Shown: positions 16,994 through 62,374 of the stretch, one piece after another
How the letters are laid out: each line of letters starts with the position of its first letter
Numbering within the stretch: position 1 is the stretch's first letter
Source: Escherichia coli
GTDB lineage: Bacteria > Pseudomonadota > Gammaproteobacteria > Enterobacterales > Enterobacteriaceae
DNA length: 64,000 bases
Assembly (NCBI RefSeq): GCF_024223415.1
Contig: NZ_CP100500.1
Direction: 5' to 3' (one strand)
Notes under the pieces: generated by a model
The model's input: the letters and a program-made list of their open reading frames with translations, nothing else
What the model was told of the DNA's origin: nothing
The model's database searches: none
Program-made: the position numbers and the translations under genes

Positions 16994-17289
16994 AATGGCT
17001 CACTCAAGCTTGCTCACGATTGATTCCAGTAACAAACCGTATTGTGTAATTATTTCTATAGCAGATCGCTATATAGGCTTGTATACATCGAATAATTTGA
17101 AAATCAAAGAGATAGGTAGATTTTCACTCGAAAGTAGTATTACGTGTAAGTGAGGAGTAATTATTGTTCGGTATCAAAGGGAGACAAAAAAAGCGCCCGC
17201 AGGAGATTTAACGGTACTTACTCCTCTTGCTGATTTCCTTATTTTTCAATAAGTAAACAAAAACAAGGGGAGCAAATTATCACAAATAA

Positions 17290-18294
17290 TTACTGGTCGA
17301 TGGACAGTTTATGGACACTTTCAGCCAGCGGATTAAAGCTGATCGCATCCTGTAAAAAGTCCGGTGAAAAATGCGCATACGTCATCGTTTGCTGAATCGT
17401 GGCGTGACCCAGGATCCTCTGCAACGTGACGATGTTCCCGCCGTTCATCATGAAATGCGTGGCGAACGTGTGCCGCATGACATGCGTGGCCTGCCCTTTG
17501 GGTAAGTCGGGCTTCACCTCCTGAAGGATCTCCCTGAAACTGAGATAATCAACCTGATATAACAGGCCGGTCCGGCGGGTTTTAATTAACGGCACAACGG
17601 AATCAGCTACAGGAACCGAGCGCGATTTCCCGTTCTTTGTGTTAAAGAACGTCACCCTGTTACCCACGATGTGTTCCCCGCGAAGCGTTGACGCCTCTTT
17701 CCATCTGGCCCCGGTCGAAAGGCACAGAATGGCAATGCGTCGTGCATCACCCTCAAGCCGTTTCAGAAGGCGATCAATCTCGTCATCTGAAAGAAAGGCC
17801 ATTTCTGTATTCTGAACCTTGAGTTTACGTATTCCGCGCACAGGGTTTTCGTTATGATAAACCTCCGCGTCAATTAACAACGAAAACATCGCAGATAAGG
17901 CGCACAGGTCGCGATTGATACTGGACGGCATCAGTCCCGCCTGCAACTTATCCGAGCGATACTCAATCATGAATTTTCGTGTCATCTGGCTGGCGCGCGG
18001 GTCCCCCATTTCACGTATCACCTTCTCCAGTCTGGTTCTGTAGGTATCACCATATGCCTGATTACGACCATCAAGCATCCACCACACCTCAATCAGTTCT
18101 GATAACCGCCGTTGATCGGCGGGCCTTGCCTGCCACGGGTTATTGTGGAAATTCTGAAGAACGTATCTTTCGAATTCCTGCGCCTTTGATTTCAGGGTGA
18201 AAATCTTACGAATCCGCCTTCCTCCCGCCCCCTGAGGCCTTACATCAACCTGATAACGTCCGTCTTTGAGTTGCTTAATCGACATGATCAGCAC
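17290..18294 (-). CDS. int: P2-type tyrosine integrase
   Basis: 334 aa; N-terminus (SIKQLKDGRYQVDVRPQG...) and C-terminal catalytic region (ILCLSTGARW..., HVMRHTFATHFMMNGGNIVTLQRILGH...YAHF) resemble P2 Int. Confidence 0.9.
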   Translation of the reverse strand: MLIMSIKQLKDGRYQVDVRPQGAGGRRIRKIFTLKSKAQEFERYVLQNFHNNPWQARPADQRRLSELIEVWWMLDGRNQAYGDTYRTRLEKVIREMGDPRASQMTRKFMIEYRSDKLQAGLMPSSINRDLCALSAMFSLLIDAEVYHNENPVRGIRKLKVQNTEMAFLSDDEIDRLLKRLEGDARRIAILCLSTGARWKEASTLRGEHIVGNRVTFFNTKNGKSRSVPVADSVVPLIKTRRTGLLYQVDYLSFREILQEVKPDLPKGQATHVMRHTFATHFMMNGGNIVTLQRILGHATIQQTMTYAHFSPDFLQDAISFNPLAESVHKLSIDQ

Positions 18295-18354
18295 CTCCGA
18301 CGGATAAACCTGTTAACCCCTGCTTACTGAACGCCGCCCGTTCAATATACAGCG

Positions 18355-18696
18355 TCAGCCAGCATTGCGGCCTGATTGGGGTGATTTTTGGGTATTGCGG
18401 GTTGAAACCTGATCGTCCTCCGACTGCGTGGAGCCATCAAGAGAGAGAGCCGGGGCGATCTGACCGGCAACAGGTAGCGTCTTATCTTTGATTAACCAGA
18501 ACATATATTTTTCAAACCGATCCACTTGAAGGACGGCCTCAACAATCTTTGCTCTGGCGATCTTTTGCCCTGACTCATAATTCCTGACAGTTGCCAGAGA
18601 TAACCCTGTAATATCAGCAAATTGCTTTTGAGTTAGCCCTTCCGTCTTGCGTATCAAACGCAACTTTTTCGCATAGTCTATTGACAAGATACTCAT
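18355..18696 (-). CDS. P2 C-like immunity repressor
   Basis: 113 aa with the motifs YESG, KYMFWLI and GQIAPAL in the same order as I recall for P2 C; transcribed divergently from the Cox-like gene. Confidence 0.75.
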   Translation of the reverse strand: MSILSIDYAKKLRLIRKTEGLTQKQFADITGLSLATVRNYESGQKIARAKIVEAVLQVDRFEKYMFWLIKDKTLPVAGQIAPALSLDGSTQSEDDQVSTRNTQKSPQSGRNAG

Positions 18697-18719
18697 TTGG
18701 GGATTAATCTCCTACAAAA

Positions 18720-18737
18720 GATAACCGTACGGTTATC
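18720..18737. promoter_or_regulatory. perfect 18-bp palindrome (putative operator) in the repressor / cox-like divergent intergenic region
   Basis: gataaccgtacggttatc is a perfect inverted repeat, followed by the direct repeat tcatcaaaa x2. Confidence 0.5.
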
Positions 18738-18799
18738 TTTACAAGTCATCAAAAATCATCAAAAGGCGCAACAAGCGCACCAATGCAAGAGGATAACAA

Positions 18800-19321
18800 A
18801 TGCGGGAGATTATTGCCGACAAAGAGTTATCTGGCGCTCAACCGGTTCAGGATGATGGCGCGGACAATGAATTCATTGAAGCTGCCAACGACAACGAACA
18901 CCTGGAAACCAAAACCAGACCGTCCTACAAAAAGGGCGCAACCCTACGACTGGACGGCCCAGTCGCAGGACTTGTGTCACTGGAAAAAGGGGCTGCCTAT
19001 CTGGGGGTAACAAAATCTGCGCTACGCGCCGCCATTCAGCGCGGGCAGATGCCGGGTCACAAAACGCGCTCAAATCCCGAAGATGAAAAGTCAGACGGTA
19101 CATGGTGGTTTAACGCCAAAGCCTGGGACGAACTAGCCGACGAACTACTGGAGTGCGAACCGCCAGAGTGGCACAACTGGAAAAGCTACTGGACGTACGA
19201 CCGCAAGAAAAGAAAGTTTTCACCGGCAAACAAGGAGGACTGCCAGACCGTTAAAGGTAAGCAGGTTTACTCCCCCAGAGTTTCAAAACTGGAGCAACTC
19301 AAAAACAACCAGCCCGGCTAA
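18800..19321 (+). CDS. Cox-like excisionase/regulator with an N-terminal extension
   Basis: 173 aa; the central region (AYLGVTKSALRAAIQRGQMPG ... GTWWFNAKAWDE) parallels P2 Cox. First rightward gene after the repressor. Confidence 0.6.
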   Translation: MREIIADKELSGAQPVQDDGADNEFIEAANDNEHLETKTRPSYKKGATLRLDGPVAGLVSLEKGAAYLGVTKSALRAAIQRGQMPGHKTRSNPEDEKSDGTWWFNAKAWDELADELLECEPPEWHNWKSYWTYDRKKRKFSPANKEDCQTVKGKQVYSPRVSKLEQLKNNQPG

Positions 19322-19329
19322 ACACGAAA

Positions 19330-19536
19330 ATGACCAGCAATATCATCAGCGCCATTCTGACACTTGTTTTTATTGAGATAGGCGTAATAGCGATCTATTT
19401 GTTTCGTAAGTTAACGGGACATGAAGAACGCTTTATTGAACTCAGCATTGAATATATCGCCGCTTATACCAAAGGACTTTTCCCGGCAGCTATTGGGGCG
19501 ATGTTTATAGCGTTTGTTATCTGGTTTATCGGGTGA
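19330..19536 (+). CDS. small hydrophobic membrane protein (hypothetical)
   Basis: 68-aa ORF with two hydrophobic segments; weak ribosome-binding site. Confidence 0.4.
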   Translation: MTSNIISAILTLVFIEIGVIAIYLFRKLTGHEERFIELSIEYIAAYTKGLFPAAIGAMFIAFVIWFIG

Positions 19537-20407: not shown

Positions 20408-20529
20408 GCGTATTTATGTCATGGTTAATTCTTATCCTTGCCATTATTTGCGCTGTGGGGATTATGCGGGTAATTAACAGCATTAACACCATTGAATCGT
20501 TATTTACTGGCGATAAGCGCCGTAAATAA
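20404..20529 (+). CDS. 41-aa hydrophobic peptide (hypothetical)
   Basis: Strong Shine-Dalgarno (aggagga) precedes an ATG overlapping the upstream stop; MSVFMSWLILILAIICAVGIMRVINSINTIESLFTGDKRRK is a single-helix membrane peptide. Confidence 0.45.
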   Translation: MSVFMSWLILILAIICAVGIMRVINSINTIESLFTGDKRRK

Positions 20530-20609
20530 ACAGGCGTTTAACACCAGAAACAACCAGAAACATCCGCTCACGCGGAGGGGTTGACCCGCTCAAAAAGGAG
20601 AAATCAGGA

Positions 20610-20903
20610 ATGCTTAATAATAAAAAAAACCGAATCATTGATAACAGTGAACAGGTCAACAAAATAATCGAAGGCACAAACAAATTAATTAAGAAAAAAA
20701 ACAAACTAAGCCGTGAATTAATGGAACATCCGGAAGAAATATTATTAGCCATGATGCACCAGACAGAAGCGATAGCCATCGCCCTTGCCGTGCAGGCGCT
20801 TTCTGAGTTCCGGGAAGAAAACATCAGGCTGGCTCAGGAGCTGAAAAACCTCAGACGTCAGCTTCAGAGCACTGAGGCTGGCACGTCATCACGAATGCAC
20901 TGA
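20610..20903 (+). CDS. hypothetical Lys-rich coiled-coil protein
   Basis: 97-aa ORF with a good RBS (aaaggag), AT-rich. Confidence 0.5.
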   Translation: MLNNKKNRIIDNSEQVNKIIEGTNKLIKKKNKLSRELMEHPEEILLAMMHQTEAIAIALAVQALSEFREENIRLAQELKNLRRQLQSTEAGTSSRMH

Positions 20904-22966: not shown

Positions 22967-23194
22967 ATGGCAAACCGCAAACAACAGCGCGCATACGCTG
23001 CGCGTCGTCACATCCAGACTGAAATCAACCGCAGACTTTCCCGCGCATTCCGCGTCGCGCATATCATGCACATCAATATGCTGCATGAGCGCAGCCACGC
23101 ACTGTCAAACATGTATTCCGCCGCTGTATTCAGCTACCTGGCGGATGACCTGCGCAAGCTGCAGGACCTCATTAACCAGCACTACCACCACTAA
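22967..23194 (+). CDS. hypothetical protein
   Basis: 75-aa basic ORF (MANRKQQRAYAARRHIQTEINRRLSRAF...). Confidence 0.45.
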   Translation: MANRKQQRAYAARRHIQTEINRRLSRAFRVAHIMHINMLHERSHALSNMYSAAVFSYLADDLRKLQDLINQHYHH

Positions 23195-38772: not shown

Positions 38773-39669
38773 ATGCCTTCCGTTGACCTGTCACAGTTAC
38801 CGGAACCGGCCATCATCGCGCAGCCGGATTTTGAGTCCATCCTGGCAGACATTAAAACCATGATGGTGAGCTCCTTCCCGGAAGAATACCGCGCCGCCGT
38901 CACCCGTGCCCTTACTCTGGAATCCGAGCCATTGAACATCATTTCCCAGGCCATGGCCTTTCGTGAAATGCTGCTTCGCCAGCGCATCAATGAAGCCGCC
39001 CGCGCCTGCATGCTCAGCCACAGCCGGGGCAGTGACCTGGACAATCTGGCCGCCAACAACAACACCCGCCGCCTGGTCATTCATCCGGCCACTGATACCA
39101 CGGAAGCAGTGATGGAAAGCGACACATCGCTGCGTCTGCGTGCCCAGTCAGCCTGGGACGGCCTGAGTGTGGCCGGACCGTCCGGCGCGTATGAGTATTT
39201 TGCCCGGAGCGCAAGCGGTCTTGTCCGTGATGCGCGCGCCATCAGCCCGTCACCGGCCACAGTCACCGTCTCCATCCTGTCAGCAGACGGTGACGGCACC
39301 GCCGGTGAGGCGTTACTGAACACGGTGCGCACCGCCCTGAATGCCGAGAACGTGCGCCCGGTTGCCGACCGCCTGACTGTGCAGAGTGCTACCATCGTGA
39401 ACTGGGTAATGGAAGCGAAGCTGTATTTTTATCCAGGGCCGGAGTCTGAACCCATGCTTGCGGCCGCTGACGCCGCTTTCCGTGCATGGCTGGCAGACCA
39501 GGGCCGTATCGGTCAGGACGTGGCCCTGTCAGCCATCACTGCAGCGCTGCATGTTCACGGTGTCCAGCGCGTTGAGGTCATAAAACCCACGCAGAACATC
39601 ACCATCAGTGACACTCAGGCAGCCAGATGTACCACATTCAGCATCAGCGAAGGAGGACGCAATGAGTGA
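38773..39669 (+). CDS. P2 gpJ-like baseplate protein
   Basis: 298 aa, conserved position after W. Confidence 0.85.
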   Translation: MPSVDLSQLPEPAIIAQPDFESILADIKTMMVSSFPEEYRAAVTRALTLESEPLNIISQAMAFREMLLRQRINEAARACMLSHSRGSDLDNLAANNNTRRLVIHPATDTTEAVMESDTSLRLRAQSAWDGLSVAGPSGAYEYFARSASGLVRDARAISPSPATVTVSILSADGDGTAGEALLNTVRTALNAENVRPVADRLTVQSATIVNWVMEAKLYFYPGPESEPMLAAADAAFRAWLADQGRIGQDVALSAITAALHVHGVQRVEVIKPTQNITISDTQAARCTTFSISEGGRNE

Positions 39670-50869: not shown

Positions 50870-51804
50870 GAACAATAATCAGGTTGAGAGGACATCATAA
50901 GGCAAGTAGATTAACGGCAGATACTTTCCCGCAACCACGGGCAAGTATTTAATTATCCATGATGAAATATGACCTAAATTGTTTTTTGCCCGCCGGAAAG
51001 CGGGCATTTTTTTATTCTTTTGTGGTTATGGGGTCATCAGGAACCACGTGCAGATTATATTTTTGTTTTTTTGGCGTTCCTCCGGCAGCAACGAGTTCAT
51101 CAATAAGACACTGACACGCCTGAACATCCCGGGCATGTCTTAGTTTCACCTTTATTGATTTAACCTTATCCTCACCGGAGGAGAAATGCAGTTCAATCTC
51201 AATATCGTTTCTTCGGAACAATCTCATACGCCCCCTGAATATATCAGAAATACTAGTATCGAAAAATGAGAAAACAGTTAGACAGGAGAAACATATTAAC
51301 ACAAATCATTTATACCTATAGATGAAATTATAATTTCATTCATGAATATGATAGATAACTATATTGTGAACAAAATGAAAAATGGCTAAATTAAAAATGG
51401 GCATGGAGGAATGCCCGGTTATCAATATAATGTGACGTAGATCATTGTTTTGCCCGCCGGAGAGCGGGCATTTTTTTTGCGCCTGCCATCGAGGCGCCTT
51501 CCCTGGCGCACACAAAGCAGCCCTGATTTTCCATGAAAACTTCAGGGTTGAGCTGCGGGCACAAAGTGAGTAGATTAGCTACGGGTACCTCCCCCTGACA
51601 ACAGGAAGGGTGTCCATTATCCATGATATACAAACGAAAAGTCTTGTTTTTTGCCCGCCGAAGCGCGGGCATTTTTTTATGCATCAGACAAGATACAGCC
51701 CACCCCAACTGACACCTGAAATATTGCCGCAACAAAAAGAAACAGTTAAATTACGCGCGGGTGCCTTTCGGCTGATGGCCGGAGGGAAAACCTGAAGGCC
51801 GGAT

Positions 51805-52038
51805 GTGGAAAGGCCCCGGAAAACATTTCTGTTTAACCGAGGCCCTAACCGCATTACCTTGACAAGTGAAAGGTTAGCGCCTCTCCGGAAAAGGAGCAAG
51901 TGCTATGTCGCAAAAATCGCTTACGGCCATCACGTTCTGCGTGACGGCAATCCTCATCATCTGGATATTGCACGGTTCGCTGTGCGAAATACGGATGAGC
52001 TTCTGGGGAGCGGAGTTTGCGGCGTTCTTACAATGTAA
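51805..52038 (+). CDS. mok-like overlapping reading frame upstream of and overlapping the hok-like gene
   Basis: 77-aa ORF in a different frame that overlaps the Hok-like ORF, as in hok/mok/sok loci; may be regulatory rather than a stable protein. Confidence 0.35.
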   Translation: MERPRKTFLFNRGPNRITLTSERLAPLRKRSKCYVAKIAYGHHVLRDGNPHHLDIARFAVRNTDELLGSGVCGVLTM

Positions 52039-52045
52039 GAAGTAA
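51905..52045 (+). CDS. Hok/Gef-family type I toxin-like small membrane protein
   Basis: 46 aa, MSQKSLTAITFCVTAILIIWILHGSLCEIRMSFWGAEFAAFLQCKK: N-terminal transmembrane helix plus the conserved SLCEI...AAF... C-terminal pattern of Hok proteins. RBS aaaggag upstream; terminator at ~52140-52170. Confidence 0.7.
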   Translation: MSQKSLTAITFCVTAILIIWILHGSLCEIRMSFWGAEFAAFLQCKK

Positions 52046-53909
52046 GGAAACCGCGACGGGGGAGCAATCCCCCGTCAATCGGTTGCCAGGGTAAGGTCGA
52101 TAAGGCACCCTATCTCACAGACATGAACAAACAAACCCGCAGCATAAAAACTGCGGGTTTTCTTTTTGGTGTCCTCACCGACTTGAAACAGTGATCAGAC
52201 TATAAGACAAAGCCCGCAATGTTGCGGGCTTACTCTACCTCTCGAAAATGTGGTCACTGCGTGGACATACGCTGATACAAATCCTTTATATCAATAAATT
52301 AAATCTTTGTTTTTTTCATCAACAATGATTTAACCTTATCCTCACCGGAGGAGAAATGCAGTTCAATCTCAATATCGTTTCTGTGGAACAGCCTCATAAG
52401 ACAACCTCCTGAATTCATCAGAAACACAGTCAACTGAAAACCAGAAAGCAGACAAACAGTGGACACACATTAATACAAATCATTTATACCTATAGATGAA
52501 ATTGCAGTTTCATCTATAACATGACAGGTAACAATATTGTGAAAAAACTCAAAACTCGTTAGATTAAAGACGGACAGAGCAATGCTACTTTATCAATAAC
52601 ATGTAACCTGTACTTCCTTATTTTGCCCGCCGAAGCACGGGCATTTTTTTTGCGCCTGCCATCGAGGCGCCTTCCCTGGCGCACACAAAGCAGCCCTGAT
52701 TTTCCATGAAAACTTCAGGGTTGAGCCAAAAGCACAAAGACAGTAGATTAACCACGGGTGCCTTCCACCTGACAACAGGAAGGGTGTCCAGTATCAATGA
52801 CAGACAACTCACATTGCTGTTTTGCCCGCCGGAAAGCGGGCATTTTTTTATTCTTTTGTGGTTATTGGGTCATCAGGAACAACATGCAGATTATGCTTTG
52901 ATTTTTTTGGTGTTATTACAGCAGCAACGAGTTTATTAATAAGACACTGACATGCCTGAACATCCCTGACATATCATAATATCACTTTATTTTTTTAGCT
53001 TGTCCTTTCTGGAGCAGAAATATCTCAACATCGTTTCTGTGGAACAACCTCATTTGCCCTTGAATGTATCATAAATATCAGCATCGGAAAACCAACAGCA
53101 ATACAGAAGAAACATGTTAATGCAAATCACTTATACCTATAGATGAAATTACAGTTTTGTTCATAAATATGATAAGTAACTATATTGTGAATAAAATGAA
53201 AACTAGCTAAATTAAACGTGGGCATGGTGGAATGCCTCGTAATCAATAATACATGATCCGTACTTCCTTGTTTTGCCCGCCGGAAAGCGGGCATTTTTTT
53301 GGCGGTTACCATCGCCTCACCTTCCTGGTTCACATGAAGCAACCCTGATTTTCCATGAAAACTTCAGGGTTGAGACAAAAGCACAAAGACAGTAGATTAA
53401 CCACGGGTACCTTCCACCTGACAACAGGAAGGCTGTCCAGTATCAATGACAGACAACTCACATTGCTGTTTTGCCCGCCGGAAAGCGGGCTTTTTTTGGC
53501 AGTTATCATAGCCGCACCTTCCTGGCACATATGAAGCAACCCTGATTTTCCATGAAAACTTCAGGGTTGAGACAAAAGCACAAAAACAGTAGATTAACCA
53601 CGGGTGCCTGCCACCTGACAACAGGAAGGGTGTCCATTATCCATGATATACAAACGAAAAGTCTTGTCTTTTGCCCGCCAAAGCGCGGGCATTTTTTTAT
53701 GCATCAGACAAGATACAGCCCACCCCAACTGACACCTGAAATATTGCCGCAACAAAAAGAAACGGGTGCCTTTCGGCTGATGGCCGGAGGGAAAACCTGA
53801 AGGCCGGATGTGGAAAGGCCCCGGAAAACATCTGTGTTTAACCGAGGCCTGACCCTTCCTACCGTGACAAGTGGAAGGTTAGCGCCTCTTTGTAAAAGGA
53901 GCAAGCGCT

Positions 53910-54050
53910 ATACCGCAAAAAACGATTATTGTTGGCATTTTATGCCTGACAATAACCCTGGTCATCTGGATGGTCCACGATTCGTTATGTGAATTCAGCT
54001 TTGATATCTGGGGAGCGCGTTTTGCGGCGTTCTTGCAGTGTAAACCGTAA
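53910..54050 (+). pseudogene. second Hok-family copy with a non-canonical start (ATA in place of ATG)
   Basis: Same frame and context as the first copy (...ggagcaagcgctATAccg...) giving (I)PQKTIIVGILCLTITLVIWMVHDSLCEFSFDIWGARFAAFLQCKP; ~60% identical to copy 1. The upstream mok-like ORF (53810-53992) is present. Confidence 0.5.
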
Positions 54051-54583
54051 GAAACCGCAGCGGGGGAGAAATTCCCCGCTATCCGGTTGTTGGGGTGGGC
54101 CGATATGGCGCCCTTTCCCTGTAGAGACAAAACAAAAAACCAGATTTGCCCGCCATTGAGAGGGCTTTTTTGTCACCCTCACCAGTGAGGGCATCATCAT
54201 TCAGAGGCGCGTAAGCCACCCGGCGTTAACATCCTGCCTGTCAACCCTGGCCGCAGAGTCTGAACGGCAGGTACCGGAAGGAGTACCAAAAACATCCCTG
54301 ACAAGTTCCGCCACCTTCCCGATATCATCAGGTGTCACATTCCTCACCTCGGCAGTGATCCGTGGCGTACCATCATCGTTAACAAGAGTGGCTTTAAAGC
54401 TGGTGCGAAGGGAAAACAACATCAACATCCCCTCCCTTTGGTTCGTTGCACTGACGGCACGACACCATCAGGAAAAAGAAAAGCCCACAACGTCAGTATT
54501 GTGGACTTTTTTCTTCAAAGATGGACATTATCTGGACACATGAAAATAAAATCCATTTATTTTCATATAGTTAAGTACCATGC

Positions 54584-54606
54584 AAAAGCGCCCGCAGGCG
54601 CTTTTT
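54584..54606 (-). terminator. serS rho-independent terminator (contains the attR core)
   Basis: aaaaGCGCCcgcaGGCGCttttt immediately downstream of the serS stop on the minus strand. Confidence 0.75.
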
Positions 54607-62240: not shown

Positions 62241-62374
62241 GAAAGGCTCTCCAGGTTACAGGCTTTTCCTGCCCGATGCTAAAACGGACAACAGTACCAG
62301 GTTACCCCAGTACTGTTGCTGTATGGATTAACAGGAGTGTAATCAAAATACGCCGATTTTGCACCTGTTCCGTG

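Follow-up and report, generated by a model that had tools for sequence, protein, structure and literature searches.

The 103-bp gap between the divergent repressor and cox genes of a P2-like prophage of Escherichia coli was found to carry a perfect 24-bp palindrome. With a probability of roughly 0.8, judged from the sequence and its natural variants, this palindrome serves a P2 C-family immunity repressor as O2, its high-affinity site next to the promoter, within a two-site operator over the early promoter Pe. The sequence-only reading of this DNA had taken the palindrome together with two tcatcaaaa repeats as the operator of a P2-type switch; the first part of that proposal stood, as the palindrome arms track the recognition helix of the repressor, and the second part did not, as the tcatcaaaa repeats are not conserved.

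The dmsA-serS interval of the E. coli chromosome carries a ~37-kb P2-like prophage of the P88/Xuanwuvirus kind (Peduoviridae), and the window (the whole stretch of 64,000 nucleotides that was analysed) was 100% identical to E. coli strain DG341-1. Copies of the att core were located at ~17190-17213 (from the attL alignment) and at 54584-54605 (as a dyad), the second copy being the serS terminator. The gene order at the left end is integrase (minus strand), a 113-aa HTH protein (minus strand), the 103-bp spacer and a 173-aa protein (plus strand), and 18697-18799 is the exact gap separating the start codons of the divergent C-like and Cox-like genes (Table 1). At the other end, the region between ogr and attR (50900-54600) was seen to hold ~3.7 kb of extra cargo, including a Hok/Gef toxin gene (51905-52045) and repeated terminator-like GC hairpins, e.g., TTTTGCCCGCCG...CGGGCATTTTT at ~50985, 51450 and 51650.

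Table 1. Positions of the genes and sequence elements of the immunity switch and its neighbourhood in the window.
Feature	Position	Strand	Basis or remark
P2-type tyrosine integrase	17290-18285	-	Pfam Int_N + Phage_integrase; RefSeq annotation of the DG341-1 locus; adjoins attL
P2 C-family immunity repressor, 113 aa	18355-18696	-	HTH_3; match to P2 C structure
TTGACA, predicted -35 of Pe	18681-18686	+	formed by repressor codons L4-S5
O1, putative degenerate operator copy, AAGATACTC-ATTT-GGGGATT	18686-18705		overlaps repressor start codon
TAATCT, candidate -10 of Pe	18705-18710	+	18-nt spacer; inferred by position
O2 (probable), perfect 24-bp palindrome, AAAGATAACC-GTAC-GGTTATCTTT	18717-18740		rarity, arm conservation, dyad offset
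TCATCAAAA x2	18746-18764	+	candidate Cox recognition repeats and/or Pc -10 region
GC-rich stem-loop, GGTGCG-CTTGT-TGCGCC	18765-18781	-	conserved; terminator-like call, T-run next in window
Cox-family protein, 173 aa	18800-19321	+	Pfam Phage_Cox; phrog_23196

It had been claimed that the palindrome lies between divergent C-like and Cox-like genes, and both flanking families were confirmed. The repressor matched the P2 C structures 2L49/2XCJ (E=3.7e-15, residues 8-92, ~41% of aligned positions identical) and shared 49% identity with WPhi C over residues 10-96; by these alignments it is a true P2 C homologue. Its predicted recognition helix (residues 34-42, LATVRNYES) aligns with helix 3 of P2 C, which is the DNA-reading helix as defined by alanine scanning (PMC2995052). 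The 173-aa protein gave a Pfam Phage_Cox match at residues 56-129 (E=1.5e-8, 34.8 bits with a cut-off of 27.5) and a phrog_23196 match at E=1.6e-92; a search of solved structures by sequence gave no match. In this protein the Cox/excisionase core is held between an acidic N-terminal extension of ~55 aa and a basic/aromatic C-terminal extension of ~45 aa, an architecture that was identical in all relatives. It is about twice the size of P2 Cox, as are the homologues in relatives L001 and L006-L010, with the N-terminal extension variable and the C-terminal extension strongly conserved (EPPEWHNWKSYWTYDRKKRKF...).

The 18-bp perfect inverted repeat gataaccgtacggttatc was present at 18720-18737 as claimed, and it turned out to be longer than first stated, extending without a gap to 12+12 perfectly matched nucleotides (AAAGATAACCGT/ACGGTTATCTTT, 18717-18740). 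This 24-mer is the longest perfect palindrome within the 64-kb window. When the window was simulated 200 times with a first-order Markov model, arms of 12 nt were never reached; the largest arms were of 11 nt, in five of the simulations.

To see which positions are kept in nature, variants of the same gene arrangement were taken from E. coli genomes, phage records and IMG/VR contigs (loci L012-L059). Across ~40 related loci a footprint emerged in which each specificity group has constant arms, with free variation in the 4-nt centre and at the outer flanks. In group A (23 loci with 12 distinct 42-mers), AAAGATA and TATCTTT never varied, the centre occurred in eight forms (GTAC, TTTT, ATTT, GTTT, TTTC, GTAT, GTGC and GCAC), and the inner arm positions drifted between AACC, AATC and ACTC. 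Group B (17 loci with 11 distinct 42-mers) carried CTTCACC-N4-GGTGAAG at the same position; here again the arms never varied, the centre took seven forms and the outer flanks were variable. Both arms change jointly, from GATAACC/GGTTATC to CTTCACC/GGTGAAG, with an altered recognition helix: LSLAT[VI]RNYESG is paired with GATAACC in group A and VSVGTIGNYESG with CTTCACC in group B, and the group A to group B changes L34V, A35G and R38G fall in the helix defined for P2 C (PMC2995052). Conserved inverted arms, a variable centre and arms that co-vary with the recognition helix make up the pattern of a dyad-symmetric operator, although the co-variation of the palindrome with the repressor is partly confounded by its physical linkage to the repressor gene.

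The arms do not follow Cox, because near-identical Cox proteins were found next to different palindromes, such as GATAACC in 569R5 and CTTCACC in EC361 (S792 and SCU-172 behave likewise), and different Cox types were found with the same palindrome. This bears directly on the reading that the palindrome is a site of the Cox-like protein (lytic repressor/excisionase) and not of the immunity repressor. The palindrome does lie between both genes, and binding of P2 Cox has been placed in the Pe-Pc region (PMC3936717); known Cox/Apl sites, however, are multiple direct repeats with 10-11-bp spacing and not single dyads (PMC7498355, PMC3936717), and the arm motif has no copy in the attL arm. We consider a Cox site hardly credible.

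When group A was compared with group B by BLAST, homology picked up again at 18741-18753, directly past the palindrome, which indicates an exchangeable immunity module made up of the N-terminal half of the repressor, O1 and O2. A module boundary at this place would also fit a palindrome that is a recombination hotspot at the module edge, or that is read by some other host or phage factor, with the repressor not involved; a host-factor site, however, would not be replaced as a whole, in step with the repressor helix, between prophages of one species, and such explanations are very improbable.

The predicted -35 element TTGACA was invariant in all loci of the 113-aa family despite changes in the flanking codons. 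In P2, TTGACA overlaps the C start and codon S2 (TCA), which aligns with the S5 codon of the window TTGACA, and in WPhi it stands 3 nt past the C start codon. The published half-sites of P2 and WPhi flank the -10 downstream of TTGACA (PMC1904268). The hexamer was thus taken as the -35 of Pe on account of its invariance and of its matching place in P2 and WPhi, where half-sites flank the -10 that follows. The candidate -10 has counterparts at the same offset in the relatives (TAACCT or TATCCT), with TAGTAT in P2 and TATATT in WPhi, both one base to the left, and the transcription start of Pe is predicted near 18717. A consensus promoter scan called no promoter in the intergenic region, the candidate -10 included, so Pe rests on positional homology.

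Measured from TTGACA, the 18-mer of the window palindrome occupies offsets 39-56 with its centre at 47.5, and the mapped O2 of WPhi (TATTGGTGAC, offsets 46-55) has a pseudo-dyad whose centre is also at 47.5. In addition, a real P2-style direct repeat that had been missed earlier was recognized, namely AAGATA at 18686 and 18718, 32 bp apart. The corresponding putative half-site pair, ACAAGATAcTC (18684-18694) and AAAAGATAaCC (18716-18726), flanks the candidate -10, is conserved and co-varies in the relatives. The upstream member belongs to the putative O1: with its left arm, the left arm of O2 recurs in direct orientation 32 bp upstream, on the far side of the candidate -10. In most group A relatives the O1 arm is AAGATAACC, and in group B it is GTTCACC, resembling that group's own arm CTTCACC; this upstream arm copy, 31-34 bp from O2 and within repressor codons 1-4, changes with the group and is followed by a partial inverted arm at the right spacing. 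O1 of the window is itself a poor copy, with 9/14 matches to the O2 arms.

The same layout was observed further afield. Matches to the own arm occur at +5 to +8 from TTGAC across lineages, and a 7-4-7 dyad is found at +35 to +40 from TTGAC in nearly all surveyed lineages (at +38 to +40 in all but one), often with a second dyad at +5 to +9. Distant members carry dyads such as GTCTCC-ATAT-GGAGAC, GGTAATC-AATG-GATTACC, GGTTGC-N4-GTAACC and TACATC-AAAC-GATGTA. In P88_4B11 (L002, 2874-2920), ATGCC-N6-GGCAT occurs twice, 31 bp apart; in L054-L058, GGTTGC-N4-GTAACC occurs twice, 32 bp apart; and L059 also has a dyad-pair switch. From these switches, the dyad-pair layout may be general in the P2 C family.

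Two further candidate sites were tried and rejected. A distal operator AGATAACC in the repressor gene (18598-18605) recurs in only one checked relative and is probably due to chance; its genome-wide excess (7 against 1.1 expected) is not informative, as it includes two dmsA copies. The dyad GATAA-AGAG-TTATC in cox codons 7-11 (~18818-18832) is present whatever the repressor specificity and has another arm spacing, and it was put down to coding.

A palindrome folds into a hairpin by construction, and the element could in principle act mainly as an RNA stem-loop, either as a 5′ hairpin of the Pe transcript or within the repressor mRNA leader, with effects on stability, translation or attenuation. 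The fold comprises a 10-bp stem with a 4-nt loop on either strand (-11.5 and -11.0 kcal/mol, z = -5.3 and -3.8); its stem is kept and its loop varies, all arm changes between groups keep pairing, and GGTTATC to GATTATC variants retain a G-U pair on the minus strand. However, the arm mismatches of L025 and L043 disrupt pairing on both strands, no Rfam family matched and nothing relevant was found in 18200-19400, and the minus strand has only four T after the stem, where the terminator scan made no call. A hairpin also leaves unexplained the upstream arm copy at 32 bp, which changes with the group inside coding sequence, as well as the match between arm and recognition helix and the fixed distance from the -35 that is common to the mapped WPhi operator. 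It is therefore unlikely that RNA structure is the main function of the palindrome, which may nevertheless have a secondary RNA role.

Returning to the palindrome as an operator, we infer repressor binding, its stoichiometry and the promoter and start positions from the sequence features, repressor family, conservation and helix co-variation observed above. One symmetric repressor dimer would sit on O2 with its recognition helices on the arms AAAGATAnnC and GnnTATCTTT, and the four central base pairs would be left uncontacted, as in the 7-4-7 geometry of P22 c2. As O2 lies just downstream of the predicted Pe, it would cover ~+1 to +24 of this promoter. A second dimer on the weaker O1, in the -35/spacer region, would cooperate with the dimer on O2, so that the two bracket the -10, shut Pe (with cox and the early lytic operon) and keep the prophage silent. 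Such bracketing of the -10 by repressor has been demonstrated experimentally in P2 and WPhi (PMC1904263, PMC1904268). As Pc would point at Pe from the right-hand side, a repressor-bound O2 would probably also tune repressor synthesis.

In the proposed comparison with P2-family operators, the offset of the O2 centre equalled that of WPhi, and P2 lacked the dyad. WPhi is similar in its homologous repressor, in the TTGACA -35 adjoining the repressor start codon (PMC1904268, PMC1904263), in the offset of the O2 centre from the -35 and in having two sites about three helical turns apart that bracket the -10 (34 bp in WPhi and 32 bp here). It differs in that its operator has been described as two 10-bp direct repeats, TATTGGTGAC, and in the quality of the two sites: in WPhi, the near-dyad is O1 (AGTAACC-TATT-GGTGACT, 6/7), and of the O2 arms a single one is good, whereas the window is reversed, with a perfect 24-bp palindrome as O2 and a degenerate O1. 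P2 shares the repressor family and fold (2XCJ), an operator over the -10 of Pe and divergent C and Cox genes (PMC2995052). In contrast, the direct repeats of its operator, of 8 bp each, are 22 bp apart, P2 itself gave no 7-4-7 dyad that reached 5/7, and its C and Cox proteins are of 99 and 91 aa, against 113 and 173 aa here.

The P22 operator is an 18-bp dyad of which the outer arms are contacted and the central 4 bp are read indirectly. The same 7-4-7 geometry with a free 4-bp centre is seen in the window, and c2 is the repressor nearest to P2 C in structure. [quoted passage not shown] P22 differs in belonging to another phage family with lambdoid back-to-back promoters, and its RecA-sensitive c2 includes a C-terminal domain. 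Phage 186, finally, is a P2-like phage with inverted-repeat operators over its lytic promoter pR and with face-to-face promoters (PMC1904263). Its CI, however, is unrelated, has 196 aa in two domains and assembles into a wheel of dimers, and the phage has a cII gene; none of these features was found here.

The type of the switch had earlier been given as P2 and not 186 on the ground that a LexA box was lacking. No LexA box was indeed detected in or near the switch when CTGT-N8-ACAG-type sites were scanned. The reasoning was weak and the conclusion was right on other grounds: the LexA site of 186 serves the tum gene, far from the switch, and the absence of such a box from a switch therefore does not discriminate between the two types. 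The assignment to the P2 type follows from a C-type repressor of ~100 aa and from the lack of a CII-family match, as no Pfam match to Phage_CP76/CII was obtained among the eight early-region ORFs scanned. The repressor is a small P2 C-family protein (113 aa for an expected ~100) that aligns with P2 C, and not a two-domain CI of ~190 aa; the first gene of the opposing early operon is of the Cox family, its protein being atypically long; and putative directly repeated half-sites, two to three helical turns apart, lie over the predicted -10/-35 of Pe.

Phage 186 is SOS-inducible through its LexA-controlled antirepressor Tum, which was not found here. The scan revealed no intergenic LexA box in the prophage, and it did recover the positive control, the ftsK/dinH box at 62317-62336. 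The number of CTGT-N8-ACAG sites was at chance level (19 found, 21 expected), and the sole perfect match was the host ftsK box. With a LexA weight matrix built from known SOS boxes, the top site was AGCTGTATTTTTATCCAGGG at 39419-39438 (19.7 bits, the ftsK/dinH box scoring only 17.5 bits). This candidate, the only strong one in the prophage, was dismissed: the baseplate J gene contains it, the CCAG of its right half is CCCG in P88 and Shae, and the match is probably a coding coincidence.

A 75-aa ORF of the early region (22967-23194, plus strand) was observed to match PF25738, "Derepression protein family" (28.2 bits, cut-off 27); it is named "derepression protein" in RefSeq and has no LexA box upstream. 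"Derepression protein" is the name of epsilon of satellite phage P4, the antirepressor of P2 C. A P2-like prophage with an epsilon-like gene of its own could derepress itself or a co-resident heteroimmune prophage.

The tcatcaaaa repeat reported earlier was present as TCATCAAAA at 18746-18754 and 18756-18764, with a 10-bp period. Exact 9-mers repeated at 10-11 bp occur in only two places in the window, and the simulated mean is 0.56 matches per window. The only other exact repeat of at least 9 nt at 10-bp spacing in the window is ACCAGAAACA x2 (20543-20562), in a short gap of the early operon where one ORF ends at 20529 and the next starts at 20610. Prophages that share the palindrome arms (569R5 type: CCAAAACAAACCATCAC) have not kept the TCATCAAAA repeat and carry CCAAAACAAA/CCATCACAAG instead; relatives have 10-bp A/C-rich units on the Pc/Cox side, one unit more in L027.

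The repeat lies to the right of the immunity-module boundary, and P2-like phages place Pc and the Cox sites to the right of this module (PMC7498355, PMC3936717). The RDF (Cox/Apl) of P2-like switches recognizes direct repeats of 10-11 bp that are located between the promoters and resemble those at att (PMC7498355, PMC3936717). A 14-mer over the repeat, AAATCATCAAAAGG, agreed with the minus strand of the attL arm (17220-17233) at 12 of its 14 positions. Matches between 9-mers from the right part of the switch and the attL arm numbered 8 with 1.9 expected (p ~0.05), which is suggestive only, and the same 9-mers gave no enrichment in the attR arm. Alongside the TCATCAAAA units, AAATCAGCAAGAGG was noted as a candidate Cox box. 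Judged from sequence, the repeat is more likely a Cox-binding or Pc sequence than a C operator; its assignment to Cox boxes and/or Pc is tentative, and we hold the odds to be somewhat against it.

The sole candidate for Pc was TTGGTG-17-GATGAT on the minus strand, with GATGAT at 18755-18760, and its -10 was poorly conserved on that strand (GATGAT, GATGGT and GAAGGT). Within the spacer of this candidate, between the palindrome and cox, stands the GC-rich stem-loop. When the alignment was folded, the stem-loop had six pairs, one of which had changed on both sides (GC to AU in 2 of 15 relatives), and one-sided wobble changes were seen at two further pairs (UG to UA in one sequence and GC to GU in three).

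The palindrome is very probably an ordinary phage operator and not a new kind of system, with the modest twist that its perfect dyad symmetry stands out in a family for which binding to direct repeats has been described. Neither this immunity class nor the P88-type switches were the subject of any paper retrieved in the literature search. The published operators of P2, P2 Hy dis and WPhi have been described as direct repeats and not as palindromes. At odds slightly under even, the "direct-repeat half-sites" may be, across the family, the better-kept arms of 18-bp 7-4-7 (pseudo)palindromes that bind one symmetric dimer each in the manner of P22 c2. If so, the window palindrome would be the fully symmetric form of the P2 C-family site, the long-noted puzzle of a symmetric C dimer recognizing non-palindromic repeats would be resolved, and a 7-nt arm together with a few residues of the recognition helix would suffice to predict immunity specificity in these common E. 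coli prophages.

The exact repressor and Cox proteins were each found on at least 1000 contigs, and related switches were present in 350 of 5426 complete E. coli genomes. The natural repressor/operator pairs (GATAACC, GATACTC, CTTCACC, GTCTCC, GGTAATC and others) offer material with which DNA reading by the P2 C fold can be tested. The immunity module is common, and its operator and specificity determinants would let superinfection immunity groups be predicted from sequence.
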